DNA of 64,000 nucleotides from OM182 bacterium BACL3 MAG-120619-bin3. Its GTDB lineage: Bacteria; Pseudomonadota; Gammaproteobacteria; Pseudomonadales; Pseudohongiellaceae. The stretch spans positions 197 to 64,196 of the forward strand of contig LICD01000001.1 of the NCBI GenBank assembly GCA_001438145.1. The letters run 5' to 3'. The notes under the pieces were generated by a model. The model had not been told where the DNA came from and did no database searches. It was given only the letters and a program-made list of their open reading frames with translations. Below, piece after piece: positions 22,989-61,994 of the stretch (the first letter of the stretch is position 1; each line of letters opens with the position of its first letter). The translations under genes and the position numbers were made by a program.

Positions 22989-23972
22989 TTGCCTAGCTCT
23001 ACCCACAACTCGCTGCAAGCGTGTATCGACCTCGGTTCTAACAGCTTCCATCTGCTGATAGCACAATGGACGCCAGAGCGCATAGAGATTATAGAGCGGT
23101 GTAGCGAGCGAGTGCAGCTAGGGGAGGGGGTTCGAGCCAGTGGCGCGATATCTCCGGCGGCCTTCGAACGCGGGTTGGACTGTCTCAAACGCTTTGATGA
23201 ATTGCTCGGTCGCTACCCGGTTGCGCGTTACTGGGCGCTAGGCACCAACACCTTTCGCGTCGCGAGTAATGCGCAAGCCTTTATTCGAGCGGCGGATCAG
23301 CTCGGCATCCACATCTCGCCCATTACTGGTACTCAAGAAGCGGTCTTGATCTACGCTGGCGTGCTTAGCGGGTTGCCGAAGAGCGCGGCGCGGCGCTTGG
23401 TTATCGATATAGGTGGTGGAAGCACCGAGGTTATTGTGGGGCATGGCTCCGCGCAGTTGTTCACTGAGAGTTTGGCAGTAGGCAGTGTTGCCTGGCGCGA
23501 CAGTTATTTTGGACAAGCACATCTCTCTGAGCAATCTCTCGAATTGGCAATGGAATCTGCGCTGGCTGATGCGCGCGCCGCATTCGCCAGAGTCGCACCG
23601 GCAGTCAAAGCGGCTGGCTGGGACGAGGCGTTTGCTGCCTCGGGCACGATTAAAATGCTGGCCTCTGTCTGCGAAGCTCATGGCTTCGGCGCCGGGCAGG
23701 TATCGCAAGAGGCATTGCTCGCCCTCAGAGGCACCTTCATCAAACAGGCGGTCTCAGGCGCTGCTTTAGCTGGACTGAAAGAGCGACGACAGGATCTGTT
23801 GCTGGCAGGCTGGAGTGTTCTGCTGGGTATTATGCAGGCCTATTCGATAGACAAAATCACCTTTAGCGCGACTGCGCTGCGCGAAGGGATGCTCGAATTT
23901 ATGATGCGCAATCAGCAGGCGCTTCGGATAATGGATAACGAGGACATGCCGCGGTTTAAACAGCGCGATTAA
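22989..23972 (+). CDS. Ppx/GppA family phosphatase (short form)
   Basis: TTG start with GAGG upstream. ACIDLGSNSFHLLIA and DIGGGSTE are ASKHA-fold phosphate-binding motifs. Confidence 0.85.
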   Translation: MPSSTHNSLQACIDLGSNSFHLLIAQWTPERIEIIERCSERVQLGEGVRASGAISPAAFERGLDCLKRFDELLGRYPVARYWALGTNTFRVASNAQAFIRAADQLGIHISPITGTQEAVLIYAGVLSGLPKSAARRLVIDIGGGSTEVIVGHGSAQLFTESLAVGSVAWRDSYFGQAHLSEQSLELAMESALADARAAFARVAPAVKAAGWDEAFAASGTIKMLASVCEAHGFGAGQVSQEALLALRGTFIKQAVSGAALAGLKERRQDLLLAGWSVLLGIMQAYSIDKITFSATALREGMLEFMMRNQQALRIMDNEDMPRFKQRD

Positions 23973-26425: not shown

Positions 26426-27426
26426 ATGAATGCCATAATTAAAAAGATTAGTTGCATCAGGCTTGTAGGCCTGGCCACAGTGGCGCTGTTAGGCAGCGCA
26501 CCGGCTGTCGCTGCAGACGTCGATTCAGCCATTCCGGTGTATGAGAGCACCAGTGGAGTGTCGGGCAACCTGTCGAGCGTAGGATCGGATACGTTGGCGA
26601 ACCTAATGACGCTATGGGCGGAGGACTTTAAGCGTGTCTATCCGAACGTGAATATTCAGATTCAGGCGGCAGGTTCGTCGACAGCGCCACCAGCTCTCAC
26701 CGAGCGTACCGCGAATATCGGCCCGATGAGTCGTGAGATGAAAGACAATGAGATCGAGGCATTCGAGTCTCGCTATGGCTACAAGCCTACTGCAGTGCCG
26801 GTAGCGATCGACGCGCTGGCGGTTTACGTGCATAAAGACAACCCGATCGAAGGCTTGTCTCTGCCACAAGTAGACGCAGTGTTTTCTTCTAATCAGCGCT
26901 GCGGCTTTGCTACCGATGTCGTTAACTGGGGGCAGTTAGGGCTCTCTGGTCCCTGGCAACAGCGCGGTATGCAGCTTTTCGGACGTAATTCTGTGTCGGG
27001 TACCTATGGCTACTTTAAAGAAGCGGCGCTTTGTGACGGCGACTTCAAAAATAATGTTAACGAGCAGCCGGGCTCTGCATCGGTTGTTCAGTCGGTGAGC
27101 ACTTCTATTAACGGCATTGGTTATTCTGGTATCGGCTATCGCACCTTTATCGCACCTCAAGCGTCCGTGCCGTGCCCATTGCGCGCACCGAAGGCGGCGA
27201 TTTCTTCGAGGCGACGCCTGAAAATTCGGTTGCGGGCAATTACCCGCTCGCGCGCTTCTTGTATGTCTATATCAACAAAGCGCCTAATACGCCGTTGCCG
27301 CCGCTCGAGCGTGAGTTCCTCAAACTGGTGCTGTCACAGTCTGGTCAAAATGTTGTGCTAAAAGATGGTTATATCCCATTGCCAGCCCGTGTTGTTGAGG
27401 GGACCCTGCGTAACCTCGGCATATGA
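26426..27426 (+). pseudogene. pstS: PstS-family phosphate ABC substrate-binding protein, frameshifted by an 11-bp tandem duplication
   Basis: ORFs 26426..27361 and 27172..27426 are the N- and C-terminal parts of one PstS-like protein (GSDTLANLM...; ...[14 protein letters not shown]...). tatcgcacct occurs twice, at 27137-27146 and 27148-27157. Removing 11 nt gives an uninterrupted 329-aa ORF reading ...[18 protein letters not shown]... Confidence 0.8.
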
Positions 27427-27475
27427 TTCGCTCTCGAGGCTAGAAAAGACTTACAAACGGTCTTCTGTCACGGGC

Positions 27476-27513
27476 CAAGAGGCTAGGCGAACGGGGTTCG
27501 GGCTAGCCTCTTG
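27476..27513 (+). terminator. strong intercistronic stem-loop between pstS and pstC (possible partial terminator or mRNA stabiliser)
   Basis: Perfect 11-bp stem caagaggctag/ctagcctcttg with an inner 5-bp stem cgaac/gttcg. Followed by tcattt, which is only a weak U-tract. Confidence 0.55.
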
Positions 27514-27625
27514 TCATTTGGTGCGACAGAAATATCGAAAGGCTTGCCTCAAGGGTGACCCGTAACGGTGACTCCTTTGCCATTAAACTGTAATATTCGC
27601 GCTCACCGATAAAGAACTAGACCCT

Positions 27626-29962: not shown

Positions 29963-31647
29963 AAATTAGCGCGTCAAAATGGTTGAGTTCAGGGACTCCC
30001 TTCGTTTGGCTAAATGCCGGTGCGGTGGCGATCAGTATTCTCATGGTGGTTGGGTTGCTTGGCCTTCTAACCGTGCGCGGCATGGCGCATTTTTGGCCTA
30101 CCGACGTGATGCAGGCGAACTATGCGCCACCCGTTGCCTTTGGCTCTGTTATGTCGACAGAGGTGCTTGGCGAAAAGGTCGAGACCGAAAGCGTGTCGAG
30201 CATTCAGATCGCGTCGTCGGGCATTCCGGTCGATGAATCGATTCCGACTTACGAACGAGAGCTCGTCAAGCTCGGCAACAGAGACGTAACCGGCGCCGAT
30301 TTCGCCTGGTTGTTGAGCAGCTATATCAGCGATATCCGCTATCCAGCTAATGTGGTTGTGCTTGAGCGCCGCGAATGGGGCAATTTCTATGGGTTCCTCT
30401 CAGGCGTCAAAGAGTCTGGCGAGCGTGTTGTGCAAGGCGCAGGGGATGATGCTGCGCTGTGGGACGAATTCGAACAGCGGCTTAGCCGCGCTCTTGCGAT
30501 TCATGACGAAATTTACCGAATCGAAAAGCAGGAGATCGGTGAGGTTAACTATGCGCTCGAACGCCTCAGGTTGAACCAGAGGGGATTAGAGTTAGACGGT
30601 GCATTTGATGCAGAAACCGAAGCCGAGTTCGCCGCGCAGCGTGAAGAATTGGGCTCAGAGTACGCGCTCTTGCAGCAAGACTTGGTGGTGTTGAATCAGA
30701 CTATCGAGCGTGATTCGGCGCAGTTTTTCGCAGCGAATGGCGCAGAGATCGAGGTGGAGTTTGCCGACATAGTACGCGCCTACAGGCCTAACCAGATGGG
30801 CTTCGCCGAAAAGCTGCTAACCTATTTTGCCAAACTAGGTGAGTTTCTTACCGATGAACCGCGCGAGGCGAATACCGAAGGCGGCATTTTCCCCGCTATC
30901 TTCGGCACGGTGATGATGGTGCTTTTGATGTCGGTGTTCGTGACCCCCTTTGGCGTCGTCGCGGCTGTTTATTTGCGCGAATACGCTCGGCAAGGGTTTG
31001 TTACCCAAGCAATACGCATCGCGGTGAATAATCTTGCCGGTGTCCCATCGATTGTCTACGGTGTTTTTGGTTTAGGCTTTTTCATCTACATTATCGGTGC
31101 CGAGGTCGATCAGCTTTTTTACCCTGAGGCATTGCCCGCGCCGACCTTCGGTACGCCGGGGTTGCTTTGGGCGTCACTCACACTAGCGCTGCTCACCGTG
31201 CCGGTTGTGATTGTAGCCACCGAAGAAGGGCTTGCGCGCATTCCGCGCAGCGTGCGTGAAGGCAGTCTCGCGCTTGGCGCGACAAAGTTTGAGACGCTAT
31301 GGCGCGTCGTGTTGCCTATGGCGAGTCCCGCGATGATGACCGGCCTTATCCTCGCCGTCGCACGGGCAGCCGGAGAGGTTGCTCCTCTCATGCTCGTAGG
31401 GGTGGTTAAACTTGCACCGTCGTTGCCGCTTGATGGCAATTACCCCTATCTTCATCTCGATCAAAAATTCATGCACCTCGGCTTCCATATTTATGATGTC
31501 GGATTCCAGAGTCCTAATATCGAAGCTGCGCGGCCGCTTGTGTTTGCCACGGCCTTACTGCTGGTTATCGTCATTGCAGGGCTGAATTTAAGCGCGGTGG
31601 CACTGCGTAATCGACTGCGCGAAAAGTTTAAGTCTCTCGAAGTATAG
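29959..31647 (+). CDS. pstA: phosphate ABC transporter permease PstA (long form)
   Basis: Its ATG overlaps the pstC stop (ATGA). C-terminal core EGSLALGATKFETLWRVVLPMASPAMMTG. Confidence 0.9.
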   Translation: MKISASKWLSSGTPFVWLNAGAVAISILMVVGLLGLLTVRGMAHFWPTDVMQANYAPPVAFGSVMSTEVLGEKVETESVSSIQIASSGIPVDESIPTYERELVKLGNRDVTGADFAWLLSSYISDIRYPANVVVLERREWGNFYGFLSGVKESGERVVQGAGDDAALWDEFEQRLSRALAIHDEIYRIEKQEIGEVNYALERLRLNQRGLELDGAFDAETEAEFAAQREELGSEYALLQQDLVVLNQTIERDSAQFFAANGAEIEVEFADIVRAYRPNQMGFAEKLLTYFAKLGEFLTDEPREANTEGGIFPAIFGTVMMVLLMSVFVTPFGVVAAVYLREYARQGFVTQAIRIAVNNLAGVPSIVYGVFGLGFFIYIIGAEVDQLFYPEALPAPTFGTPGLLWASLTLALLTVPVVIVATEEGLARIPRSVREGSLALGATKFETLWRVVLPMASPAMMTGLILAVARAAGEVAPLMLVGVVKLAPSLPLDGNYPYLHLDQKFMHLGFHIYDVGFQSPNIEAARPLVFATALLLVIVIAGLNLSAVALRNRLREKFKSLEV

Positions 31648-31726
31648 AGTCATGCGGCGGCGCTGCTGCCTCGACAACGCGTGGCTATAAGCCAAAACGC
31701 TTAATCGTTAAAAAGAGAACAGATTC

Positions 31727-32542
31727 ATGAGAAAAGTAGATGTTAGTTCAGTGCTCGGTGCTAGCGCGGAAAACCCCGAAGGCTTAGAGAGCTGCATCGA
31801 TGTTTCGGGACTGAACCTTTACTATGCGAAAGACAAGCGTGCTCTTAATGGCATCGACTTGAAGATTCCGAAGCAGCGAGTGACTGCGTTTATTGGCCCG
31901 AGCGGCTGCGGTAAATCTAGCCTGCTGCGCTGCCTGAATAGAATGAATGATCTTGTCGATGACTGTGTTATCGATGGGCTGATCGAGATCGACGGTGAAG
32001 ATATCTATTCGAAGCATGTCGATGTTGCAGACCTGCGCAGACGAGTCGGCATGGTGTTCCAGAAGCCAAACCCCTTTCCAAAATCTATTTATGAAAATGT
32101 CGCATATGGTCTGCGTATACAGGGGATCAACTCGAAGCGCGTGCTAGACGAAGTCGTCGAAAAGTCACTGAGGGCGGCGGCACTGTGGGACGAGGTAAAA
32201 GATCGCCTCCACGACAGCGCGCTCGGGATGTCGGGTGGTCAGCAACAGCGTCTGGTTATCGCTCGCACGATCGCCGTCGAACCAGAGGTGCTGCTGCTCG
32301 ATGAACCGGCCTCCGCGCTAGACCCTATTTCTACTTTGAAGATCGAAGAGTTAATCCATGAGCTCAAACGCGATTATACGATCGTGATTGTGACGCATAA
32401 CATGCAGCAAGCTGCGCGCGTTTCTGATTTCACCGCATTTATGTATATGGGTGATATGGTTGAGTTTGACGCGACCGATAATATCTTCACGAATCCTGCG
32501 AAAAAGCAGACCGAAGACTATATCACTGGGCGTTACGGTTAA
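31727..32542 (+). CDS. pstB: phosphate ABC transporter ATP-binding protein PstB
   Basis: Walker A GPSGCGKS, signature SGGQQQRL, Walker B LLLDEP, and the PstB-typical C-terminus [10 protein letters not shown]. Confidence 0.95.
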
Positions 32543-32614
32543 TGTTTTGTTTTCGCGCTTTCAGCGAAGGCGCATGATGTTTAACGGGATACTTTTGGAC
32601 TCTAAGGACGCAGA

Positions 32615-33334
32615 ATGAATTCGAATATTGAAAGCCACGGCCACCATATCTCTAAGCAGTTTAATCTCGAACTCGAAGAAATTAAAAACAATATGCTCGA
32701 GATGGGCGGGGTTATTGAACGTCAGATCGCCGATGCAATGAAATCGCTCCTTGACGGCGATACGGGTCTGGCCGCTCAAGTCCTGACAGTCGAAGATCGC
32801 ATCGATTCGATGGAGGTGAGTATTGACGAGGAATGCAGCCTGATTCTAGCTCGTCGCCATCCGGCAGCGAGCGACTTGCGTCTTGTACTCGCGATCATTA
32901 AGACTGTGCGAGACCTTGAGAGGGTCGGAGACGAGTCTGCTAAAATCGCGCGTATGGCGATAAAGCTTAGTGAAGAGGGCGAGATCTCCCAAGGACTCGT
33001 TGAGTTCCGTCACTTGGCGGATAGCGTGACGCGGATGGTAAGTGGCTCCCTCGATGCGTTTGCTCGTTATGATGCCGATGCAGCTCTCGAGGTTGTTCGC
33101 GACGACGTTGCGGTAGATAAAATCTACGCAAGCGTAATGCGCTCACTAATCACCTACATGATGGAAGACCCGCGCAGTATTAGCCGAGTTCTCAATATGC
33201 TCTGGGCGCTGCGTGCGCTTGAGCGCATCGGCGACCATGCGAAGAATGTCGCTGAGCACGTGATTTACTTGGTGAAGGGAATGGATGTCCGGCACGAAAA
33301 GTTAGCCGATGTTGAAGAGCAGCTAGAAGACTAG
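32615..33334 (+). CDS. phoU: phosphate signalling complex protein PhoU
   Basis: Two PhoU repeats with D..ER.GD motifs (RDLERVGDESAKIA; RALERIGDHAKNVAE). Confidence 0.95.
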   Translation: MNSNIESHGHHISKQFNLELEEIKNNMLEMGGVIERQIADAMKSLLDGDTGLAAQVLTVEDRIDSMEVSIDEECSLILARRHPAASDLRLVLAIIKTVRDLERVGDESAKIARMAIKLSEEGEISQGLVEFRHLADSVTRMVSGSLDAFARYDADAALEVVRDDVAVDKIYASVMRSLITYMMEDPRSISRVLNMLWALRALERIGDHAKNVAEHVIYLVKGMDVRHEKLADVEEQLED

Positions 33335-34629
33335 TCCAGCACTCTTTCTCTTGGGATATGGCAGCCGAACACGCTGCCTTTTCGTGGCGTGCTCTTCACT
33401 TCTAACTCCGAGTCGTGCCTCGCCAGAATGTGCTTCACGATGGCGAGGCCAAGCCCTGTTCCACCAGACTCTGCTGACCGGCTGGGGTCGACTCTGTAGA
33501 ATCGTTCGGTGAGGCGTGGAATATGATGCGACTCGATGCCTAGACCGTTATCCTCCACTTCAATTTTTACCCCTGTCGAATCGAGTGCGGCACGTAACTC
33601 AATCATGCCGCCTGCCGGCGTGTATTTTGCGGCATTGATAACGAGGTTAGACAGAGCGCTATAAAGCTCTGAGCGTTGCCCGAGTAGAATAATCTCATTC
33701 GGGCAATTGATCGAAAAGTTGTGCTGCTTCTCGGCCATGATTTCTTGGGTATGTCCCTTTATTTCTTGTGCAAGTTCTCCTAGATCAATCTTTTCTTGGG
33801 CTCTTGGTGCTGCGCGGGTCTCAATCGAGCTAAGAACAAGCAAATCTCGCACGATATTCTCCATCCGCTGCGACTGTGACCGCATCTGCTCGATTGGTTT
33901 ATGCCAGCGCGAATCGAAGGAATCTAAATTGTCGGCGATCGTCTCGAGATAGCCTTTAATTACTGTGATGGGCGTTCCTAACTCGTGGGAAACATTGCCA
34001 ACAAAGTCGCGGCGCATAGATTCAAGTCGATGAAGCTGGGTAACGTCTCTCACGAGCATCAACTTTTCATGCTCCCCAAAGAGGGTGATTTGAAATTCGA
34101 GCGTGCGACCACTGACTCCAGGCGCTTCGATACGAAGTGTTTGGCTGTACTTCTCCTTATGAAAATAGTCGGCAAAACGGGGGTCACGAATAAGATTTGT
34201 GACCGCTTGATTGCGGTCGTTAGGATAGCGAATGCCAAGCAGATCTTCGGTTGCCCGGTTCCACCAGTCCAAAGTTCCTTGCTTGTTAATCATCACGACG
34301 GCCATCTCTAGCGCCGCGGAGGACTCCTGCGCTTTGTCGAGAATATTTTTTAGGTAGTCGCTGGCGAGTCTTTCTTGTTTCTGTAGACGATAGATGCTGT
34401 CGAAGATTGATCCCCAGGTTCCCGTACTTTCTGGCGGCTGGGTGTCGCTTTTGTGAGAGTCTTTGGCTACCCACTGGGTAAGGCGTCGCAGTTGGAGGAG
34501 GTTGTATCCGCTGTAACCTGCGAGAGCGATGAGGAGAACAAAAGAAATCTCCCCGACCAGCAGGCCAAAAACTAAGGCAGCTGCAAGAATGAGAAGGAAA
34601 CGCCGGAGCTCGTTGCGCCACGTGTTCAT
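33331..34629 (-). CDS. phoR: phosphate regulon sensor histidine kinase PhoR
   Basis: N-terminal TM hairpin, PAS region, H-box FVGNVSHELGTPITVIKGY, and HATPase boxes DNGLGI and GGTGLGLAIV. Confidence 0.9.
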   Translation of the reverse strand: MNTWRNELRRFLLILAAALVFGLLVGEISFVLLIALAGYSGYNLLQLRRLTQWVAKDSHKSDTQPPESTGTWGSIFDSIYRLQKQERLASDYLKNILDKAQESSAALEMAVVMINKQGTLDWWNRATEDLLGIRYPNDRNQAVTNLIRDPRFADYFHKEKYSQTLRIEAPGVSGRTLEFQITLFGEHEKLMLVRDVTQLHRLESMRRDFVGNVSHELGTPITVIKGYLETIADNLDSFDSRWHKPIEQMRSQSQRMENIVRDLLVLSSIETRAAPRAQEKIDLGELAQEIKGHTQEIMAEKQHNFSINCPNEIILLGQRSELYSALSNLVINAAKYTPAGGMIELRAALDSTGVKIEVEDNGLGIESHHIPRLTERFYRVDPSRSAESGGTGLGLAIVKHILARHDSELEVKSTPRKGSVFGCHIPRERVLD

Positions 34630-46245: not shown

Positions 46246-46665
46246 ATGATCGTCACTGTGACAAGGCCTTTGGCATCGCTTTCTTTTTTAAAAACCTCAC
46301 TTCGGGCATTCGCGTTTATCGCCTGCGTGTCGCTGAGCATGACTGCGAGCGCGCATAATGTGTTGAAGTCGTCGATTCCCGCCGATGGTTCTACGCTTGA
46401 GCGCTCACCCAGCGAGCTCGCGCTCGACTTCAATGGTCAGGTGAGATTAGTAAAGCTGTCCTTAAAACGCAGCGACGAGAGTATCGATGTGGGTTTTAAG
46501 CCTGATCTTACCGCAGCGACCTCTTTCGTCGTACCAGTGCCTGAGCTTGCGTCTGGGACTTATTCCCTCGAATTTTCAGTGATAGGCGAAGATGGCCATA
46601 CCGTCGCAGGGCACTTTAATTTTGGCATAGGAATGCCAGCTGCTCATGCGGAGAGCGGGCACTAG
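46246..46665 (+). CDS. copC: copper resistance protein CopC
   Basis: GGAG upstream. Signal peptide ends ...TASA-H, so the mature N-terminus is His. SSIPADGSTLE..PSELALDF and the EDGHTVAGHFNF motif. Confidence 0.85.
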   Translation: MIVTVTRPLASLSFLKTSLRAFAFIACVSLSMTASAHNVLKSSIPADGSTLERSPSELALDFNGQVRLVKLSLKRSDESIDVGFKPDLTAATSFVVPVPELASGTYSLEFSVIGEDGHTVAGHFNFGIGMPAAHAESGH

Positions 46666-46701: not shown

Positions 46702-47625
46702 GTGACCTTGCTCCTGTCTATTCCTAGTCTGTGGGCGCTTGCATTCGCCCTCGCAAAGATCGGCGTTTTCGCCGGACTGATCGCGGGAGCGGGCGGTGTT
46801 TTGGCGCTGGGCGGCTACCACAATGGCTCCCGCGCGGCGCACACCCGCCTGCTGTCCTACAGTTTATTAGGCGCTTTCATTGGATTCCATTCGAGTCTCG
46901 CGCCGGTCTTGATTCAGGCAGGGCAGATAAACGACGCAGGTGTGATGGGCATGTTCGATAGTGACCTAGTTCTGCTGCTGCGTGGCACTCCTGTATGGGA
47001 GTCAGCTGCCTTTCGTGGCGCAGGCTTTGCGCTCTCGGCGCTGTTAATCCTTTCATTGCTGCGAACACTGCGGGCGCAAAGAAAGCCGCCCGACTCAGTC
47101 TTTTATCGGCTCGCTTTTATCGGGCAAGCACTCGCGCTCGGCCTCGTCGCCTACGGCTTTACGCTGTCTGGCCATGTCTCTGTGCTCGACGCGTGGCTTC
47201 GGGCAGCGCTGGCGTTTCATGTGGCCGCGATGGCGATCTGGGTAGGGATGCTTCTCCCCTTGCGCTGGTGCTGCGACGATGTCGAGACTGGGGATTTGGG
47301 TGATCTGATGAGGCGATTTGGCCGCCTCGGCATGGGTTTAGTCGCAGCGCTCGCCTCAAGCGGTGCATTTATGCTGCTCACTCTCATCGACCTAATCGAG
47401 TTGTTTACAACCCAGTACGGTCGCCTAATGCTTTTCAAACTTGCCGCTTTCGTCGGCCTTCTCTCTATCGCAGCCCTCAATAAACTGCGGCATGTACCAG
47501 TGCTACACCTGCCTGGCGGCTCACGAGCGCTAGCCCGAAGCATCGATCGAGAGCTTATTGTTGCGATGGTTCTTCTGCTTGTGACCGCAGTCGTTACGAC
47601 GCTGCTTGGGCCTGCGACACACTGA
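46702..47625 (+). CDS. copD: copper resistance protein CopD family membrane protein
   Basis: 8-TM protein directly after copC. GTG start. Confidence 0.75.
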   Translation: MTLLLSIPSLWALAFALAKIGVFAGLIAGAGGVLALGGYHNGSRAAHTRLLSYSLLGAFIGFHSSLAPVLIQAGQINDAGVMGMFDSDLVLLLRGTPVWESAAFRGAGFALSALLILSLLRTLRAQRKPPDSVFYRLAFIGQALALGLVAYGFTLSGHVSVLDAWLRAALAFHVAAMAIWVGMLLPLRWCCDDVETGDLGDLMRRFGRLGMGLVAALASSGAFMLLTLIDLIELFTTQYGRLMLFKLAAFVGLLSIAALNKLRHVPVLHLPGGSRALARSIDRELIVAMVLLLVTAVVTTLLGPATH

Positions 47626-49674: not shown

Positions 49675-50202
49675 TTAATCTTCAGGCACGACGCGATAGG
49701 AGCCTGTGCTGGGCAGGCTTTCGACTGCATCGCTCACCTTACTCGCAATAACCTCGGAAGGGGGAATAGCGTCGTCGCCTATAGAGAATTTGAATTCCCC
49801 ATTTAACAGGCCGCGTTTGCCATCGGTGACTGACCACCGTGCAATGTAGTATTCAGAGTCGGGTAGCTCGAAGCCTAGTGGGTAGGCAAAGCTGTCCGCC
49901 ATGCGGTTAGGGTCATAGGCAAAGCCGATGTTGATCCAGTCGCCTTCGGCCGAGTAGAGCGCTAATTTAAGCAGTGTGACATCGACGCGAAAACTCATCA
50001 TGATCATCTGCGGCGACTCATCGAGTACCGAGTCGTCTGTCGGGAAAGTCACCCCTGGCGTCAATACGCCATGGCTATGTTGCGCCGCAAGCGGTGTTGC
50101 TAGAAAGAGGAGGCTGGCGGCAAATAAACACGGCAGTGAAAGCAGCCGAGAGTGAAACTCTTGTCGCCCTAAGCACCGACGATTGCGACTCCCGTTGACC
50201 AT
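49675..50202 (-). CDS. secreted CopC-fold protein with degenerate copper site
   Basis: ORF trimmed to the ATG at 50202 (alternative 50232). Signal peptide ...ATPLAAQ-HSHG. The SP.MIMMSF..DVTLLKLALY...W.V.DG......G.F.F layout is like CopC, but DGK replaces DGH. Confidence 0.55.
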   Translation of the reverse strand: MVNGSRNRRCLGRQEFHSRLLSLPCLFAASLLFLATPLAAQHSHGVLTPGVTFPTDDSVLDESPQMIMMSFRVDVTLLKLALYSAEGDWINIGFAYDPNRMADSFAYPLGFELPDSEYYIARWSVTDGKRGLLNGEFKFSIGDDAIPPSEVIASKVSDAVESLPSTGSYRVVPED

Positions 50203-50239
50203 ATGCTTGCCCCCAGCTTTTGCTTTTATCATTGCAGCG

Positions 50240-51079
50240 CTACTGTTCGAAATACGCCATACACTGCCGCGATAGCGCACACAGTCTGCCCGACTCTTCA
50301 TATATTCGTCCACTTTGCTGAGTATAGCCATCTGCCGCGGCATCGAGGTCGAAGTCTAGGTAAAACCACTCCCCCTTAACGTCGGCAGGATCCACGATAA
50401 ACTCCAATCCCCAGCTTACCGAACTGGCTGGTACAAACGGTTTGTCATAGTGGCAGAGCAGAACGGGCGGTGGCATATCAGCGATAGCGATTATCTTTTC
50501 GGCAGGATAGTCGGACATATCGCACCGATGCCTCACCCACATGTTCAGCCTGCGTGAGCGCGAGCCAGAGAAAGGCATGGCGTCGCCTACCCAACACCCT
50601 TCAAATTGATTAAGGAATGTCGGCATGCGCGCTGCGTACTCAGCGAATGGAATCCCTTCACTGCGGGGGAGGGGATTGCTGAGAGGGGCCGCTTCCACGC
50701 GAATACCCTCGCGTGCTTGCCCAAACACGCCCAGCGCTTGGAGCGCTGGCCTGCCTTCGCTTAATACTGTCGCGCTACACTGCGTTACATTGCGTCCCTG
50801 GCGCTGTATCGCTGCCTCAACCGAGAGTGGGGCCGGCGGCAGTGGCGCGATGAAAGAAGCCATTAACGAGCGCAGCGCAGGCTGCGGCTCGAGCATCTTC
50901 TTCATGCTGAGGCTGGCAAAGGCAGCGACGAGGCCTCCGAAAGCCGCTCGGCCTTGAGACCAGTTCTCATCAAAATCAGTTTCGTTGGTCGGGCTATGTT
51001 GGAGCCTATCTAAAATATCTTGCAGGGTATTGCCGGTCACAGAGAAAACCTTTTCGAGAGCGAAGATTGCCCCTAACAC
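50240..51079 (-). CDS. acyl-CoA thioesterase (TesB-like double hotdog) family protein
   Basis: NWSQGRAAFGGLVAAFA N-terminal hotdog motif. Size and layout resemble thioesterase-II-like proteins. GTG start. Confidence 0.55.
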   Translation of the reverse strand: MLGAIFALEKVFSVTGNTLQDILDRLQHSPTNETDFDENWSQGRAAFGGLVAAFASLSMKKMLEPQPALRSLMASFIAPLPPAPLSVEAAIQRQGRNVTQCSATVLSEGRPALQALGVFGQAREGIRVEAAPLSNPLPRSEGIPFAEYAARMPTFLNQFEGCWVGDAMPFSGSRSRRLNMWVRHRCDMSDYPAEKIIAIADMPPPVLLCHYDKPFVPASSVSWGLEFIVDPADVKGEWFYLDFDLDAAADGYTQQSGRIYEESGRLCALSRQCMAYFEQ

Positions 51080-51193
51080 GGGCGTGTAATATTCTTAGCG
51101 ATTATAGTTTAGTGAATCAATTATGGCTCTAGTTTATCGTAAGCTACAGTGTTTAGGCTTGGTGCATGGCTGCGACTCACAGGGTAGATCATA

Positions 51194-51880
51194 ATGTCGG
51201 GCGCGGTTATCTTGGGTAGAAAAGTGAAACAGAACAGGGCCGGTGAAAGTAGAGCTATTGATGTGCTGTCGCTCGTAAAGGCGTGGCACCTTGTTGTAGT
51301 GACACTCTGTTCACTTGTTGCAACCTTCGCTGGGGCACAAACCCCCGCAGCTGTCGCCACCTATCCGCGGGCTGCGCTGGATTTCACAGGAATAGTAGCG
51401 AAGACGCAAACGACTCCGCTGGATGATTCAGTGTTCGACTCTTCGCCAGAAAGATTGGCGCTGGCATTCCCTGAGAAGGTGCACCTGGTCAAGTTAATCC
51501 TGCGCAATCAGGCCCACGACTGGGTTGATATCAGCTTTCGTTACAGTCCGCGCTTAGCGAGCGACTTTGAATGGTCTCTACCGAGCTTGCAGGCGGCCGA
51601 TTATTACACGGCAGAATGGGCAATACTCGACGAGCAGGACCGTCTCATTAGGGGGAATTTTAGTTTCTCATTCGGCGAAATGGCGCGCATGCCCTCGCTG
51701 ATTAAAGCCGAGCAGGAATTAGCGTTGCGTCTGAGAAATGGGGAAGACGAGAGCACGCGGTTTATTACCCCGCCGCGAACGGAGATAATTCTTGAACAGG
51801 AGCCGCGCAGTTATGACCCGCCATTTACTCTGCGTTTGGAAAGCCGCGAGAGTAATGAGACCCGTAAAGAAGATTGCTAG
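51194..51880 (+). CDS. secreted CopC-fold protein with degenerate copper site, paralog of 49675..50202
   Basis: The SSPERLALAFPEKVHLVKLILRN...YYTAEWAILDEQDRLIRGNFSFSFG layout parallels the CopC fold. There is no mature N-terminal His and no DxH motif. The start is uncertain. Confidence 0.5.
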   Translation: MSGAVILGRKVKQNRAGESRAIDVLSLVKAWHLVVVTLCSLVATFAGAQTPAAVATYPRAALDFTGIVAKTQTTPLDDSVFDSSPERLALAFPEKVHLVKLILRNQAHDWVDISFRYSPRLASDFEWSLPSLQAADYYTAEWAILDEQDRLIRGNFSFSFGEMARMPSLIKAEQELALRLRNGEDESTRFITPPRTEIILEQEPRSYDPPFTLRLESRESNETRKEDC

Positions 51881-52041: not shown

Positions 52042-52074
52042 AAAAAAACGGCAGTACTCATTATGAGACTGCCG
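52042..52074 (-). terminator. Rho-independent terminator for the minus-strand operon ending at 52106
   Basis: On the minus strand: cggcagtctcat..atgagtactgccg hairpin followed by T7. Confidence 0.8.
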
Positions 52075-52105
52075 CTTTCACGCAAAATCTTATGCGGTGT
52101 TCGCG

Positions 52106-53050
52106 CTATTCAGTGACCCGCACAGTGATGTAGTCGTCGTTATAGAGTCCGCCATCGTCGGCACGTGCCCAGAGGATGTAGGTTCCCGGCTTATCGAAGG
52201 TTGCTTTAACCTCGATCATGCCATCTTCCGGAAGCTCGGGTGGAAGCCACAGTGCGCCCCAGGGGGAGTTGGCTGACGTACGGGTGTCTTCCCATGGTTT
52301 GGGCAATGGTGGATCAAATTCGACGTGCCCTTCTCCTCGGTAGACATTCCACGAAAGGAATAAACCATTCACCTTGCCGACAGTGATGCGAGTAGGGGGC
52401 CTCATCATCCGCCGCATGGCGTCTTTTTCTGAGATTGTGCTGTCTCGACTCGCTTTCGGGATGCCGTCATCTATCACTCGCGTGTTAAGCACCAGAGGCT
52501 CACCCACGCGCACGGTACGAATGTCATCGCCTTGCACTTCGATGGTTGGCTTCACGTTCGAGCGAGACTCGGGGCTGCTTGTTCCAGCGCCCAAAGAGCC
52601 TGTCTCAGAGGCGATAACGATATTATCGACCTGGTAGTCTGGTTTCAGTGTTGCATAGGCTTTGCGCTCTTGGCCGTTAACGTTGAGCGTCCAAACAAGT
52701 TCTCTATCGCCCCAATCTGCGGGCACAACCACCTCGAAATTGAATCGGTTACGTCGCGGCAGAAAGTGCGTTGGCTGGCCTCTATCGGCTTCGCCAGGGG
52801 AAAAAGCGTTGTTCTCGCCTACGGGAACATCAGGCTCTTCTGACCAGTTCTCGTTCATGTAGCCGAACATAAAACTGAACGTGCCGTCTGCATTTGGCCG
52901 CCAACCTTCGTAAGCTGGTTCTATATGCTGCCCCGATTGGTAACTTGTTTGTGCGAGGCTTGGCGAGCCCAAAAGGCTGAGGAGGGTAGTGATGACTGCG
53001 ACGAGCAGGGCTTTCGCCCTGCTTATCACACTACTGGAGTTAACATACAT
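52106..53050 (-). CDS. secreted protein of unknown function (C-terminal Ig-like beta-sandwich signature)
   Basis: Signal peptide ...LLGSPSLAQT. No family recognised. The C-terminus GTYILWARADDGGLYNDDYITVRVTE is Ig/PKD-like. It starts 35 bp after the upstream gene and is probably co-transcribed. Confidence 0.65.
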   Translation of the reverse strand: MYVNSSSVISRAKALLVAVITTLLSLLGSPSLAQTSYQSGQHIEPAYEGWRPNADGTFSFMFGYMNENWSEEPDVPVGENNAFSPGEADRGQPTHFLPRRNRFNFEVVVPADWGDRELVWTLNVNGQERKAYATLKPDYQVDNIVIASETGSLGAGTSSPESRSNVKPTIEVQGDDIRTVRVGEPLVLNTRVIDDGIPKASRDSTISEKDAMRRMMRPPTRITVGKVNGLFLSWNVYRGEGHVEFDPPLPKPWEDTRTSANSPWGALWLPPELPEDGMIEVKATFDKPGTYILWARADDGGLYNDDYITVRVTE

Positions 53051-53085
53051 CGTGTCTTGTTTCTCTCGAGTAATTAAGTAAAAGC

Positions 53086-54519
53086 CTAGTTGGCCGCAAC
53101 TTCGTTGCCTGTCGCTTCACCCTCTTTGTCCGCGATTGGCGCGACAATAGGGGCGAGGCAGAGTGGGCAACCGATAACGTGATCATTCGGTCCGAGATTG
53201 AGTACTTGGCGACGTTCTTCCATCGCTTCATGGAACTGCTCGTCGGTGAGTGTGACGCGAATACCCAGATCGATGAACATGTTTGTTACAGAGCGATTGC
53301 CCGAGCCTTGCCAGTTTCTTGGATCCGGCACGTTCGGGTTAGTCTCTGTATTGTTCATGTAACCGACGATATGCAGTATTGTGCCCTTCGGTAGAATCGG
53401 AGCAGCTTGGTCGGCATAGGGATAGCCGCGCACCCAGTTATGGTCATAGCCTACGCAAGACAGGGTTTCGATAGTGTAGCCCCAAATAGCTTCAAGGCAC
53501 ATACGCTCACCTGGCGCATGAAGGTGCGGCTCGAAGCTAATGATCTTGGTGTGATTTTCAAGCACAGTGTAAGCGTGGAGCTCTTGATCGCGGGCGTTGC
53601 CTTGGATGCTGATGTCTACGCCATTACCCAAACCGATAAACGCATTCTGGTATTTCGGCTTGTAGTCTTTGTCGTGGAAGCGGAAGCCCACCTCGAGGTG
53701 ACCGGTCGTGTCGCGGCCATTCGAGTGTAGGTGAACCGAGTCTGACACTATCGCTGAGCCCGCTTTGAGTAAGCGACCTGCATCTTCGTCGAAGATATCG
53801 GCATTACGACCCACTTCGTGTACTGGCCATGGGATGGAGAAACCTGGCGCACGCTCACCTTTCTCGTCGAGCATCGCAGTGCCCCAGATCATATGGTGGA
53901 ATATGTAGCGACCGCCAACTGTGCCAGAGTCGGCAGAGTTATCGACGTCGTTGACCTCGACGACTTCGACTGATTTCACGTAGCGATCTTCTTCGAGGCC
54001 AGTTGGAATGTAGTCGATTTCACCCCACCAGTCCGGCGTGCCGGCGAGTTTAGTGACATCGTTCATTACGACCACGAGGTCTGGCTTGCCCGCTTTCCAC
54101 TTTAGGCTGTCGTCGAAAGCCATTTGTTCAGGCGCGTCTGCAATGTCGCCTTTTGGCGTGCCGCTGCGCGCCCAAGTAGAGATAGCAGCGATCTCTTCGT
54201 CGCTTAAAGAGGGGTCATCCTTATATTCTTGGATGCCGATGTTCTTTTCCATATACCAAGGGGGCATTGCGCCGGCACGATCGCGAAGACCGGTCTTGTA
54301 TTCGATCAGGCCTGCGAAAGGGGCTACTTCTTCGTAAGTCACGAGAGGCATCGGGCCCGCGCCGCCATCACGGTGGCAGTTCTGACAGCTGCGCTGCAGA
54401 ATCGGCTCGATATCTTTGTGGAAAGTGACTTCGTCTTGCGCTGAAACAGCGCTGGCGAATGACATCGAAAGAGTCATTGCGAGCGCGCTGAGAGCGGATT
54501 GAGCGGTGAAGTTGCGCAT
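53086..54519 (-). CDS. periplasmic cytochrome c domain fused to a PHM/DBH-like (type II copper monooxygenase-like) domain
   Basis: Signal peptide ...ASAVSAQD. Heme-binding CQNCH within FHKDIEPILQRSCQNCH. Downstream are FHHMIWG, SVHLHSNG and PHLHAPGERM, plus later Met residues (GYM, TNMF). This reproduces the HHM...H...HxH...M ligand order of peptidylglycine alpha-hydroxylating monooxygenase. Confidence 0.65.
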   Translation of the reverse strand: MRNFTAQSALSALAMTLSMSFASAVSAQDEVTFHKDIEPILQRSCQNCHRDGGAGPMPLVTYEEVAPFAGLIEYKTGLRDRAGAMPPWYMEKNIGIQEYKDDPSLSDEEIAAISTWARSGTPKGDIADAPEQMAFDDSLKWKAGKPDLVVVMNDVTKLAGTPDWWGEIDYIPTGLEEDRYVKSVEVVEVNDVDNSADSGTVGGRYIFHHMIWGTAMLDEKGERAPGFSIPWPVHEVGRNADIFDEDAGRLLKAGSAIVSDSVHLHSNGRDTTGHLEVGFRFHDKDYKPKYQNAFIGLGNGVDISIQGNARDQELHAYTVLENHTKIISFEPHLHAPGERMCLEAIWGYTIETLSCVGYDHNWVRGYPYADQAAPILPKGTILHIVGYMNNTETNPNVPDPRNWQGSGNRSVTNMFIDLGIRVTLTDEQFHEAMEERRQVLNLGPNDHVIGCPLCLAPIVAPIADKEGEATGNEVAAN

Positions 54520-54670: not shown

Positions 54671-55450
54671 TTATGCACCGCGCTCGGGGCCTTTTAGCAG
54701 CGCCCAGAGATTGCTGCTCGCCAGCAAACTGGCAAAAACTACAATTAAAGAAAGACAAAACCATTGCAGTGCATAAGACAAGTTCTGATCGACATCGGCG
54801 CTCACAGCCGGCCAGTGTCTCGCCAAAGCACCGTCCTGATCTGCAGTCAGCCTAACCTCGAATGGCCAGACGTCTTCACCCAAGAGCTGACTGACGATAT
54901 CGAGTTCGAGGTCGCGCATGAAAATAGGCCACTGGGACGCATCAATCTCGCTCTCACGAGGCTTCCAGCCAGCGGATGGCACATAGAGCTGTGCGGTCAC
55001 AGAAACGGGTCCCTCGACTGGCGCTGTGCGAATCGTTTGCCCGGGTTTGTTCACCGCGCTCGTCCAACCCCTGCTCACGAGCACTATTTGTCCATTAGCG
55101 CTAAGCCTGAAGGGGGTGACTACACCATAGCCGATCTGAGTCTGGTGGAACTGCCCGAGGAGCAAAATGGTTTTGTCGTTAAGGTATTCCCCCACAAGCG
55201 CGACATGCCGGTTTTGCAGCTCTGGATTAGCGCGGTTGAGGTGTCCATTAGGAATAGACTCGATGGGTTCGGCACTGCTTTTAGACTCGTTCTCCATAAT
55301 TTGCTGCGCATTGACTTTCTCGGCAGCGCGATCGAGTTGCCACAGGCCCAGGCGACCAAAGGCGAGTATTGTTAGTAGAACGCAGGCCAAGATAGGCCAG
55401 TTGATGCGGATACTAAACACGCCAAAAGTGTATTCATTCGTCGATATCAT
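54671..55450 (-). CDS. SURF1 family cytochrome oxidase biogenesis protein
   Basis: N-terminal TM helix followed by FGRLGLWQLDRAAEK, then a C-terminal TM helix with YALQWF. Confidence 0.85.
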   Translation of the reverse strand: MISTNEYTFGVFSIRINWPILACVLLTILAFGRLGLWQLDRAAEKVNAQQIMENESKSSAEPIESIPNGHLNRANPELQNRHVALVGEYLNDKTILLLGQFHQTQIGYGVVTPFRLSANGQIVLVSRGWTSAVNKPGQTIRTAPVEGPVSVTAQLYVPSAGWKPRESEIDASQWPIFMRDLELDIVSQLLGEDVWPFEVRLTADQDGALARHWPAVSADVDQNLSYALQWFCLSLIVVFASLLASSNLWALLKGPERGA

Positions 55451-59495: not shown

Positions 59496-61994
59496 TTAAG
59501 TGTCTGCTGAGGATTGCTGACCAAGCTTAGTTCGCTGCGTTCTCGCCGCAGGGTCTAAATGAATCGGGGCAAGGCCTGCAGCAAGCTGCGCCCTGTCGCG
59601 TCGCTCTGCGGGCGCGTCGGCATAGAGCGTCGAACGCATTCTAGGCTCACGACCTAGGGCCCGAATTGTCGTCTCTATTTCAGCGGGCGACCATTCTTCG
59701 CCGTGCTCGGCTCCTGCGGCGCGGGTAATGCTTTCATTCATCAGCGAGCCACCGACATCGTTGGCCCCAGCATTAAGGCAGGCTGCTACGCCTTCGCGAC
59801 CCATTTTAACCCATGACGCTTGTATGTTGTCGATGAGGCCGTTAAAGACTAAGCGCGGCACTGCGTGCATCAAGAGAGCCTCGCGGTAACTTGGGCCGCG
59901 GCGTGCTTTTCCTTTTTTGTACATTGGTGCCTCGTGCGCCACAAAGGGCAAGGGTACGAATTCGGTGAAACCGCCTGTCCTGCGCTGCAATTCGGCGATC
60001 GAATAGAGATGTCGCGCGCTGTGCTCGGGGCTCTCGATATGGCCGAACATTATCGTTGCCGTAGTCCTGAAGCCTATTGCATGGGCGCTTTCCATCACTT
60101 CTAACCATTGCGCCGAATTGAGTTTGTCGGGGCACAGGTGCGCCCGCACATCGTCGTGAAGTATTTCAGCTGCAGTACCAGGCAAAGTGTCGAGCCCCGC
60201 ACTTTTTAAGCGCGCTAAAAATTCTGTCAACGGCACGTTAAGCGTTTCGGCGCCTTGCCAGACCTCGAGCGGTGAAAAAGCATGAATGTGCATAGCCGGT
60301 GTTGCTTTTCTCACGGTTGCGATTATGTCGAGATAAGTCTGTCCTGTGTAGTCGGGATGGATTCCACCCTGCATACAGACCTCGGTAGCGCCGCGCTCCC
60401 ATGCTTCGACGCAGCGCCGAGTTATTTCTTCGGCACTTATGTCATAAGGCTTACCGCGCAGATTCTCGCTGCCACTGCCTTTAGAAAAGGCACAGAACTG
60501 ACATTTGAAATAGCAGACGTTGGTGTAATTGATATTGCGGTTAACCACATAGCTCACTGTGTCGCCAGACACCTTTTTGCGCAGCGTGTCTGCGGCCTCA
60601 ATAACGGCGCCAAAGTCGGCGCCGCGGCTACGCAGCAGAGTAGCGATCTCAGTCTCTGCCAAAGGCTCACCTGCTAGGCAGCGCTCGATTAGAGCCGCGA
60701 CAGCGGGTTTTGCTTGTGCGAACGGCAAGCTCAATTCGGTGGAAGGCGCATGCTCGCTAATTCCTGCGATCCACTCATCACGTTTGGCATACCCTTCGCC
60801 ATCACTTTGTTTGCGCGCAGCGGGCTGCACTTTTGGCGAAAGCCATGTGTCTGCTTCTACAAGGTAGCGTGGATAGAGTGTTAAGCGCTGATCGAGATAT
60901 TTACCCGCGCTGCCCGTATCGCGTGCTAGTTGGGCGAGATGCGGCCAAGGCGCCTCAGGATTGACGTGATCGGGGGTTAGCGGCGACACGCCGCCCCAAT
61001 CGTTAATGCCGGCTGCAACCAGTTGCTCTAATACGCCGGGGCTCAAATTGGGCGGTGCTTGAATAGACATCTCGGCACCAAAAATCAATCGGGCGACGGC
61101 GATAGTCCACACCAGTTCTTCTAGATCAGGCTCTGGCGCAAGTGCCATCTTAGTGTGTGGCTTTGCACGAAAATTCTGCACAATGACTTCTTGCAGATGT
61201 CCGTAGCGACGATGCGATGTTCTGAGAGCGAGCAGCGACTCGATGCGCTCTAATCGCGTTTCACCAATGCCTATCAAAATGCCAGACGTAAAAGGCACGC
61301 GCAGTTCGCCGGCGAGATCAAGCGTCGCGAGGCGAGTGATAGGATCTTTGTCCGGCGAGCCATAATGCGGCATACCCTTTTCACAGAGTCGTGTAGAGGC
61401 TGATTCAAGCATGATGCCCATCGACGCGCTCACGTCACGCAAGGCGAGCATTTCGTCGCGGGTAAGATTGCCGGCGTTAATATGTGGTAGCAGCCCAGTC
61501 TCGACAAGCACTCGCCGCGCGACTTCGATCACGTAGTCTATGGTCGTCTTGAAACCTAATGCGGCAAGGCTTTCGCGCGCGGCGCGATAGCGCAATTCTG
61601 GTTTTTCACCGAGCGTGAAAAGCGCTTCTTGACAGCCCAATGCGGCACCAGCTTTGCAGGTCGCTATGACTTCGTCGATCGGCATATACGCCTGAGGAAT
61701 ATGTTTTGGCGTTTGCGCGAAAGTGCAGTAGTGGCAGACATCGCGGCAGAGTTGGGTGAGGGGGATGAACACCTTGCGTGAGTAAGTGACGACATTGCCA
61801 AAGCCTAAATCTCGACAATGCGCCGCTTCTTGGGCGAGTCGTGCGGTGTCTGTGCGGCTGGCAAGCGCGAGTGCTTCTTTATCGCCGAGCACTTTATCGC
61901 CGAGCACTGCATCGCCGCGCACTCCACCGTCGAGTGATCCGTCGCTGTGCGCGTTTTGACCGAGCGCAGTGTCTTCAGGCACGCTTATTTTCAT
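59496..61994 (-). CDS. fbiC: bifunctional FO (7,8-didemethyl-8-hydroxy-5-deazariboflavin) synthase, CofG-CofH fusion
   Basis: Two radical-SAM CxxxCxxC clusters, CRDVCHYCTF in the N-terminal half and CYFKCQFCAF in the C-terminal half. At 832 aa, the length and order match FbiC. Confidence 0.85.
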   Translation of the reverse strand: MKISVPEDTALGQNAHSDGSLDGGVRGDAVLGDKVLGDKEALALASRTDTARLAQEAAHCRDLGFGNVVTYSRKVFIPLTQLCRDVCHYCTFAQTPKHIPQAYMPIDEVIATCKAGAALGCQEALFTLGEKPELRYRAARESLAALGFKTTIDYVIEVARRVLVETGLLPHINAGNLTRDEMLALRDVSASMGIMLESASTRLCEKGMPHYGSPDKDPITRLATLDLAGELRVPFTSGILIGIGETRLERIESLLALRTSHRRYGHLQEVIVQNFRAKPHTKMALAPEPDLEELVWTIAVARLIFGAEMSIQAPPNLSPGVLEQLVAAGINDWGGVSPLTPDHVNPEAPWPHLAQLARDTGSAGKYLDQRLTLYPRYLVEADTWLSPKVQPAARKQSDGEGYAKRDEWIAGISEHAPSTELSLPFAQAKPAVAALIERCLAGEPLAETEIATLLRSRGADFGAVIEAADTLRKKVSGDTVSYVVNRNINYTNVCYFKCQFCAFSKGSGSENLRGKPYDISAEEITRRCVEAWERGATEVCMQGGIHPDYTGQTYLDIIATVRKATPAMHIHAFSPLEVWQGAETLNVPLTEFLARLKSAGLDTLPGTAAEILHDDVRAHLCPDKLNSAQWLEVMESAHAIGFRTTATIMFGHIESPEHSARHLYSIAELQRRTGGFTEFVPLPFVAHEAPMYKKGKARRGPSYREALLMHAVPRLVFNGLIDNIQASWVKMGREGVAACLNAGANDVGGSLMNESITRAAGAEHGEEWSPAEIETTIRALGREPRMRSTLYADAPAERRDRAQLAAGLAPIHLDPAARTQRTKLGQQSSADT
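61878..61922. repeat. 15-bp tandem repeat x3 (tttatcgccgagcac x2, tgcatcgccgcgcac) in the 5' end of fbiC
   Basis: Read directly. It encodes VRGDA-VLGDK-VLGDK, before the catalytic domain begins. Confidence 0.9.

Follow-up and report, generated by a model that had tools for sequence, protein, structure and literature searches.

Two adjacent genes for secreted proteins

We analysed a 64,000-nucleotide stretch (the window) of contig LICD01000001.1 from the gammaproteobacterium OM182 bacterium BACL3 MAG-120619-bin3, in which two adjacent minus-strand genes encode secreted proteins. The first (53086..54519), with an AGGAG Shine-Dalgarno sequence 10 nt upstream of its start, encodes a 477-aa protein (the enzyme, and putative catalytic subunit) that joins a c-type cytochrome domain to a predicted two-copper core like that of peptidylglycine alpha-hydroxylating monooxygenase (PHM) and dopamine beta-hydroxylase (DBH), which in animals serve peptide-hormone amidation and noradrenaline synthesis, respectively; the second (52106..53050), directly downstream, encodes a 314-aa partner. 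On balance, and with some reserve, we favour the reading that the two proteins are the subunits of a periplasmic PHM/DBH-type copper monooxygenase, in which heme c would take the place of ascorbate as the point of electron entry.

Both open reading frames lie where an earlier reading, made from the sequence alone (the sequence-only reading), had placed them, 35 nt apart. The spacer (53051..53085, minus strand) carries a purine-rich GAGAGAAAC stretch ahead of the partner ATG and implies co-transcription of the two genes. The unit is closed by an intrinsic terminator (52042..52075, minus strand), which the same reading had assigned to both genes and which folding calculations bear out. A hairpin at about 52049-52075, beginning 30 nt past the partner stop codon, is followed by U7 at 52042-48, and its folding energy is -21.9 kcal/mol (z = -5.1 against shuffled sequences). 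A simple consensus terminator scan missed this hairpin because its stem is bulged.

The enzyme begins with a Sec-type signal peptide, read by eye from the sequence (about residues 1-27, ...SAVSA/QDEV; 54439..54519, minus strand). This N-terminus has low confidence in the structural model described below, and it contains neither a twin-arginine motif nor a lipobox. By inspection, the partner N-terminus (...SPSLA/QTSY) also reads as a Sec signal peptide; both proteins would be exported by Sec.

Fold and conserved residues of the copper core

We modelled the enzyme with AlphaFold2 on an alignment of 140 sequences that are 35-95% identical to the query. The model (predicted local distance difference test, pLDDT, 85; predicted template-modelling score, pTM, 0.82) has a helical domain (residues 30-125) and, after it, two beta-sandwiches like those that make up the core of PHM. 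The N-terminal sandwich, at about residues 145-295 (53635..54087, minus strand), is the equivalent of the CuH domain of PHM according to the secondary structure of the model and hhalign; the C-terminal one, which together with a closing helix spans about residues 296-440 (53200..53634, minus strand), is the equivalent of the CuM domain according to the model, hhalign and Pfam. The sequence-only reading had suggested a PHM/DBH-like fold from motifs, and the comparison with known structures agrees with it. In a Foldseek search of the PDB the top 30 matches to the model were all DBH or PHM, with a probability of 1.0; the best was DBH (4zel, E = 1e-9), and about 28 were PHM entries with E-values from 1e-8 to 1e-5. 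The template-modelling scores of these matches, normalized to the target, were 0.5-0.62, and the matches that followed were at least a thousand-fold weaker in E-value. Sequence identity in the structural alignments to PHM chains was only 8-10%. In addition, when 99 diverse members of the family were compared with Pfam, 18 matched Cu2_monoox_C (PF03712, best E = 3.9e-5) and 2 matched Cu2_monooxygen (PF01082); in divergent relatives the two matches were weak and stood in the correct domain order.

We then aligned family profiles with the rat PHM core, using the PDB-deposited sequence, in which chain residue n is PAM residue n+44. With hhalign, profile A5 matched PHM at E = 3.6e-4 and profile A3 at E = 1.6e-4 (probability 51%), the latter over residues 147-422 of the window enzyme and 19-278 of the PHM chain. 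All six copper ligands of PHM align with residues of the same kind. H208-H209 (53893..53898, minus strand; kept in 140/140 and 139/140 sequences) align with the CuH ligands H107-H108, and H263 (53731..53733, minus strand; 140/140) with the third CuH ligand, H172. H332-L-H334 (53518..53526, minus strand; 140/140) align with the CuM ligands H242-T-H244, and M414 (53278..53280, minus strand; 140/140) with the CuM methionine M314. Two further positions fall into place, M210 on M109, which lies beside CuH, and G337 on the motif glycine G247, and the two proteins have the short motifs HHM, H-x-H-x-x-G and (D/N)-M in common. On this alignment H208, H209 and H263 would correspond one-to-one to the CuH site, and H332, H334 and M414 to the CuM site. 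The spacing of the ligands is HH-54-H-69-HxH-80-M in the window enzyme, the corresponding distances in PHM being 64, 70 and 70.

The motifs named in the sequence-only reading are present at the residues it gave (CQNCH at 45-49, FHHMIWG at 207-213, SVHLHSNG at 261-268 and PHLHAPGERM at 331-340). Among the 17 His, 14 Met and 6 Cys residues of the enzyme, those conserved in at least 99% of the 140 sequences are C45, C48, H49, M57, M85, H208, H209, H263, H332, H334, C341, C355 and M414; the conserved histidines are, thus, the heme histidine H49 and the five ligand-equivalent ones only. The motifs are not a product of chance, conservation at this level being limited to these residues. The ligand order claimed by the sequence-only reading therefore stands for the six aligned residues, but not for all the residues it had listed: H265, M340 and M388 are conserved in 89%, 51% and 20% of the sequences, respectively, and for this reason are not family-wide ligands. 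In an alignment that takes in a Bacteroidota relative with 23% identity, C45, C48, H49, the MPPW motif, H208, H209, H263, H332 and H334 stay invariant; a DEM motif of this relative lies in a MAFFT insertion near the M414 column and is not aligned to M414.

Some conserved features of the core have no counterpart among the PHM ligands. Both H265 (53725-53727; 89%, as above) and H383 (53371-53373; 85%) are conserved well above background at positions where PHM has no ligand. H265 aligns with G174 of PHM and makes H263-x-H265 a second HxH motif, this one in the CuH domain, and to judge from this motif the CuH site of the window enzyme may differ from that of PHM. C341 and C355, both 99% conserved, are probably linked by a disulfide within the CuM domain. 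Near the C-terminus a CPLC motif (C451 and C454; 53158..53169, minus strand) lies in a low-confidence tail, with pLDDT below 50 from residue 460 onward. As GCPLC (a CxxC and not a CxxCH motif), it is specific to the near clade, where it is invariant, and to some relatives of 50% identity, it is present in 36% of the sequences of A5, and most of the family lacks it. The motif could serve copper acquisition or thiol-disulfide chemistry.

Heme c domain and electron supply

The helical domain that precedes the core (about residues 28-125; 54145..54438, minus strand) is assigned by Pfam and the model as a mono-heme c-type cytochrome domain. The Pfam model Cytochrome_CBB3 (PF13442) matches the window enzyme at E = 5e-4 with 20.7 bits, under its cutoff of 27, and cytochrome c models are matched by 93 of the 99 diverse family members (E <= 0.1, mostly sub-threshold). 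The predicted helices span residues 33-44, 62-78 and 107-118, and a profile search of the PDB found that the surroundings of the heme motif resemble the heme domain of hydrazine synthase alpha and PccH. The attachment motif CQNCH (C45, C48 and H49; 54373..54387, minus strand) is invariant in 140/140 sequences, and the heme would be attached to it in the periplasm. M85 (54265..54267, minus strand) belongs to an MPPW motif that is invariant in alignments A3, A5 and A8; by analogy with the MP motifs of class I cytochromes c it is likely the distal, sixth heme ligand, although M57 is invariant as well. Across the 64 kb we found neither a second copy of the family nor another CxxCH protein, and before window position 46000 there is no other open reading frame that contains CxxCH.

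To our knowledge, PHM, DBH and tyramine beta-monooxygenase (TBM) have been characterized only as eukaryotic, ascorbate-dependent enzymes. Ascorbate is an unlikely donor for the window enzyme, as its fused and invariant heme c domain suggests a different one. We propose that soluble or membrane-bound respiratory cytochromes would reduce heme c by single electrons, and that heme c would in turn reduce CuH (H208, H209 and H263) in the first beta-sandwich. From CuH the electron would cross the interdomain cleft to CuM (H332, H334 and M414) in the second beta-sandwich, where O2 would be activated for hydroxylation of the substrate at a C-H bond. How electrons cross from CuH to CuM is still debated for the eukaryotic enzymes.

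A tethered heme that feeds a pair of coppers has a parallel in the three-domain NirK of Ralstonia pickettii, in which a mono-heme cytochrome c tethered to a periplasmic copper enzyme donates electrons to a two-copper relay. The order that we propose, from tethered heme c to a first copper and on to the catalytic copper, is the same; however, NirK is built on the cupredoxin fold, holds coppers of type 1 and type 2, carries its cytochrome at the C-terminus, reduces nitrite and has no homology to the PHM fold. Heme proteins are also known to give single electrons to oxygenases with mononuclear copper: the cytochrome of cellobiose dehydrogenase feeds lytic polysaccharide monooxygenases, and cytochrome b561, together with ascorbate, feeds DBH and PHM in secretory vesicles. 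Those donors are separate, eukaryotic heme b proteins, whereas the window enzyme would hold a covalent heme c in the same polypeptide. As to DBH (4ZEL, the best structural match) and TBM, their catalytic core likewise bears extra modules. That of DBH is an N-terminal beta-sandwich of the DOMON type, known elsewhere to bind heme or sugars, while the accessory module of the window system is a c-type cytochrome and a separate protein with two predicted immunoglobulin (Ig)-like domains. Pfam found no DOMON match in the enzyme or the partner, and we detected in the window enzyme none of the DBH-type dimerization and tetramerization elements. From PHM itself (the PAM core; PDB 1PHM, 1SDW and 1OPM) the window enzyme differs in being bacterial and periplasmic, with a heme c domain fused at its N-terminus and an Ig-like partner.

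The same components could run in reverse, with the copper sites oxidizing the substrate, as in a dehydrogenase or oxidase, and heme c serving as the electron exit to the respiratory chain, thereby conserving energy. Periplasmic oxidoreductases fused to cytochrome c often hand electrons to the respiratory chain; a pyrroloquinoline quinone (PQQ) dehydrogenase with a cytochrome c domain is encoded near one homolog, and the data by themselves do not fix the direction of the electrons. However, the complete PHM ligand set is conserved, including the CuM methionine. In PHM, DBH and TBM this set serves reductive O2 activation, and we know of no precedent for dehydrogenase chemistry on a PHM scaffold. 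We, therefore, take reverse flow to be unlikely, while granting it some weight.

A second alternative is suggested by a redoxin-linked sister group, which has the cytochrome c domain and the PHM-like core with the full ligand set at 23-30% identity, but in which a thioredoxin-fold domain replaces the Ig-like partner. It includes N-terminal AhpC/TSA-redoxin fusions (P0356, 1251 aa; P0371, 606 aa) and the enzyme gene WP_284688968 of a Chondrinema litorale plasmid (L091 5261-7314), with a separate redoxin gene upstream. The Bacteroidota (Chondrinema) plasmid locus also adjoins genes for cytochrome c peroxidase and PhoX. The redoxins and the nearby peroxidase gene would suit a peroxygenase or peroxidase that runs on peroxide, or a role in oxidative stress, with heme and copper using or removing H2O2. 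The candidate sixth ligand M85, on the other hand, is an invariant methionine, typical of electron-transfer cytochromes and not of peroxidases; the clade of the window protein is without a redoxin partner, and redoxins of the TlpA kind may just as well act in metallation or reduction. We consider a peroxide enzyme improbable. A further member of the wider family, P0317 (1064 aa), contains the whole cytochrome c-PHM-like module in tandem duplicate, with EF-hands.

Partner, family and substrate

We examined how consistently the partner accompanies the enzyme. GTDB species representatives contain at least 588 stretches that encode the enzyme, and counts out of 80 below refer to the best 80 of these. 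The partner adjoins the enzyme gene in 73/80 loci, and most exceptions lie at contig ends. In paralogous loci (L064-L078) the enzyme-partner pair is all that is conserved. In all eight distant genomes or contigs (8/8) a gene of 286-305 aa without a Pfam match lies directly downstream of the enzyme gene, and its product, where compared, is 35-37% identical to the window partner. Moreover, the two proteins are fused in four metagenomic representatives of 50%-identity clusters. P0267 and P0287 carry the partner at the C-terminal end, P0277 carries it at the N-terminal end, and in P0266 the enzyme is nested between the two domains of the partner; because of this nesting, the P0266 fusion is not a read-through of gene calling. 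The two-gene cassette, whose conservation the sequence-only reading had left to be checked, is thus maintained well beyond close relatives. The partner gene is duplicated in tandem in some loci of Pseudohongiella: in 12 orthologous loci (L005, L006, L010, L011, L015, L026, L027, L029, L032, L038, L040 and L058) the first copy is immediately followed by a paralog whose product shares 61-67% identity with that of the window, at about 8.5-9.7 kb in locus coordinates; the window has one partner gene.

The partner consists of an N-terminal beta-sandwich (about residues 35-150) and a probably PKD/Ig-like C-terminal domain (about residues 166-314). The N-terminal domain has sharply conserved polar motifs (EGW, DG, FGY-N-N-E and DRGQPTHF-PRR); across the family no Cys or Met is conserved, and H95 is the one near-invariant His. 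The window partner has no match in Pfam or NCBIfam, and a search of the PDB with the partner profile was also empty. It had been described as belonging to no recognizable family, which holds for the window protein itself but not for its C-terminal half, which on the evidence of relatives and the model is probably PKD/Ig-like: Pfam PKD (PF00801) matches 2 of 20 diverse partners (E = 1.5e-5), the partner in locus L087 has a faint precomputed PKD match, and the C-terminal strands of the model have pLDDT above 90, with Foldseek returning generic tandem-Ig proteins. A CopC/YtkA copper-binding profile was not found on the N-terminal half, where YtkA matches were weak (3/20, E = 0.013). From the gene linkage and the fusions we infer that the partner is an obligatory subunit that would bind the catalytic subunit in a structural or substrate-presenting role.

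Given that PHM chemistry is the hydroxylation of a glycine C-alpha, one could also suppose that the enzyme modifies proteins or peptides, possibly the partner itself, by glycine hydroxylation in an invariant Gly/Ser-rich interdomain loop (ASETGSLGAGTSSPESR). This loop is invariant in the near clade and has conserved glycines, and M20/M28 peptidase genes lie near the pair in the window and in locus L089. The loop sequence is not kept in distant partners, however, and the fusion of an enzyme and its substrate in one chain would be unusual. The residues R240, N316 and Y318 of PHM, which anchor the substrate carboxylate in the 1OPM complex, are also replaced: their columns hold Q/E, F/I and W/L in the family (E330, I416 and L418 in the window enzyme). 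Because these anchors are not conserved, the substrate should differ from peptidylglycine, and modification of the partner or another peptide seems to us quite improbable. From the same columns, the substrate pocket looks more hydrophobic than that of PHM; the substrate of the proposed monooxygenase would probably be a small organic compound, rather hydrophobic or uncharged.

Several observations weigh against a PHM/DBH-type monooxygenase. The HMM searches suggested by the sequence-only reading gave a divided answer: relatives yield the weak PF03712, PF01082 and cytochrome c matches described above, but the window enzyme is below the Pfam thresholds, with no match to a PHM domain at E <= 0.1, and every scored match of a relative to these domains is below the gathering cutoff. 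The hhalign probabilities are only 37-51% with a single sequence as template; global alignment did not succeed with A5 or A8 and gave a weaker result with A3, and the C-terminal half of PHM alone gave a weak match. Searches of PDB sequences with the protein, the family profiles and the relatives nearest to the Pfam models, P0371 and P0335, never reached PHM or DBH, matching only the CxxCH surroundings of hydrazine synthase alpha/PccH and redoxin structures, and an NCBIfam search of the window proteins gave no match. The redoxin-coupled relatives hint at an electron supply or chemistry that differs across the superfamily; the partner model is poor (pLDDT 61, from a shallow alignment), so that complex formation rests on genomics, and no consistent catabolic neighbours point to one substrate. 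The sub-threshold Pfam scores, along with PNGase-type structures at Foldseek ranks 34 and 40, would also suit a non-catalytic binding module, of the PNGase F/lectin-like fold of the PHM superfamily, carried on an electron-transfer cytochrome. Yet conservation in the family is highest at exactly the six PHM copper ligands, and DBH and PHM outrank other folds by at least three orders of magnitude in E-value, which makes such a module very improbable indeed.

The family is large and has passed largely without annotation. A collection of 5.8 billion proteins holds more than 6500 homologs of the enzyme and more than 6900 of the partner. The best 120 homologs still share 75-99% identity, and their annotation never goes beyond "mono/diheme cytochrome c family protein" or "hypothetical"; the RefSeq label of the relative WP_284688968 is "hypothetical protein", and Pfam and NCBIfam contain no curated family model that covers the enzyme or the partner. 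A HMMER search of 1.84 billion cluster representatives returned 4,393 matches at E <= 1e-10 and 379 at E <= 1e-30, reaching down to about 30% identity and including multi-domain forms. The best 80 stretches all come from Pseudohongiellaceae, OM182 or "SAR86"-labelled gammaproteobacterial metagenome-assembled genomes (MAGs), several with two or three paralogs, and a tblastn search of plasmids gave a single distant match. We rejected homologs labelled 'Deltaproteobacteria' or 'Kiritimatiellia' as evidence of breadth, as their contigs carry the full synteny of the window. In these loci (L081-L085; homologs P0024 and P0088, under the NCBI names 'Deltaproteobacteria' and 'Kiritimatiellia bacterium') the gene order of the window extends over roughly 12-20 kb, and the contigs are probably mis-binned from gammaproteobacteria of the Pseudohongiellaceae type.

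A full-text literature search found no description of a bacterial fusion of cytochrome c with PHM/DBH, which does not prove that the literature has none; automatic superfamily tags may exist elsewhere. Judged from sequences and models, what appears to be new is a bacterial architecture of two subunits in which a PHM/DBH-type two-copper core is fused to heme c and would act on a different substrate. This would extend PHM-type chemistry to the bacterial periplasm, in an enzyme that has its own heme c donor and depends on a partner, and would offer a system that can be expressed in bacteria, with the heme as an optical reporter of electron transfer between the coppers. It would also suggest a plausible role for the thousands of proteins now called "hypothetical" or "cytochrome c family", which are very highly conserved (75-98% identity throughout one family of marine bacteria) and occur as two or three paralogous pairs per genome.

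The window neighbours include genes for CopC (46246-46665), CopD (46702-47625), a thioesterase, a nitroreductase, a beta-lactamase-family protein and an M20/M28 peptidase. Closer to the pair lie a SURF1-family gene, 151 nt upstream (54671..55450, minus strand; Pfam SURF1, E = 4e-35; 56/80 loci), and two genes for CopC-fold paralogs, one convergent with the cassette (51194..51880, plus strand; Pfam CopC, E = 2.4e-5; 57/80 loci) and a second (49675..50343, minus strand; Pfam CopC, E = 3.3e-4, just under the cutoff; 55/80 loci). The two paralogs (window 49675-51880) are 38% identical, have long N- or C-terminal extensions and flank an acyl-CoA thioesterase gene; this CopC-like/thioesterase/CopC-like trio is kept in 55-57/80 related loci. 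The description of the neighbourhood as copper- and heme-centred is accurate for orthologous loci of the Pseudohongiellaceae type, but it does not extend to paralogous or distant ones. The block of CopC-like, thioesterase, CopC-like, nitroreductase and beta-lactamase genes, together with SURF1, is conserved only among orthologous loci, and CopC, CopD and SURF1 are absent from the eight distant contexts, where the pair alone persists. A functional tie to SURF1 and the biogenesis of cytochrome oxidase was rejected, because SURF1 adjoins the pair only in orthologous loci.

Such neighbours raise the question of whether the pair handles copper, as a periplasmic Cu(I) oxidase, a copper buffer or a metallochaperone complex of the CopC/CopD cluster. 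The presence of copC-copD and the two CopC-fold paralogs within 8 kb, the CopC-like genes in 55-57/80 loci and the clade-specific CPLC motif are all in line with this. Against it, the copper genes are missing from every distant context, and in the partner neither Cys nor Met is conserved and only one His is near-invariant. The presence of two or three paralogous pairs per genome, some of them beside TonB receptors and AraC, fits catabolism better. A role of the pair in copper handling, thus, strikes us as improbable; it is possible that the CopC-fold proteins, whose genes recur next to orthologs and one paralog, supply copper to the proposed monooxygenase.

The contexts of the paralogous and distant pairs offer some clues to the substrate. 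In a Pseudohongiella paralog cluster (L079) the gene order is partner-like, CopC, META, Ldi-family (Tat-exported), enzyme, two TonB-dependent receptors, AraC, enzyme and partner. The Ldi-family gene of this cluster (2541-4379; Pfam E = 1.5e-12) encodes a linalool dehydratase/isomerase (Ldi) family protein with a twin-arginine translocation (Tat) signal, which is a possible hint at terpenoid-like substrates. In 5 of 9 annotated paralog and distant contexts (L079 7785-13109, L089 13309-16101, the P0457 contig, L092 13369-16356 and L093 9323-11419) the pair has genes for TonB-dependent receptors or CarboxypepD_reg-type outer-membrane proteins no more than 8 kb away. This recurrence suggests that the substrate is imported across the outer membrane, possibly via these TonB-dependent receptors, and then oxidized in the periplasm. 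If the substrates are dissolved organic compounds, the pair would represent an unrecognized oxygenase route in marine carbon turnover.

In its widest form the proposal is that these proteins make up a large unrecognized class of bacterial periplasmic monooxygenases of the PHM type, which are driven by the respiratory chain via the fused heme c and not by ascorbate, need a dedicated Ig-like subunit and hydroxylate dissolved organics imported through TonB systems, in marine heterotrophs (Pseudohongiellaceae, OM182 and SAR86-labelled MAGs) and in other phyla, and that they could serve as the first genetically tractable bacterial model of electron transfer from CuH to CuM. We offer it tentatively, judging its chance of being right in all these parts to be slightly less than even.

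Two other features of the window were noted. An FbiC-type fused radical-SAM gene (CofG/CofH-like, 832 aa) lies at 59496-61994 on the minus strand, about 5 kb from the cassette. The product of the orthologous FbiC-type gene in L081 has Pfam Radical_SAM and CofH_C domains, and in the very distant GCA_022820825.1 a homologous gene for 805 aa (L092 10286-12703) follows the pair after 91 nt; its proximity to the pair may be a coincidence or a link to deazaflavin. Elsewhere, at 19447-23972 and 26426-34629, a reading of N-terminal sequences indicates a FeoB-like GTPase/transporter, a bacterioferritin-like gene and a pst/phoU/phoR-like phosphate uptake cluster.

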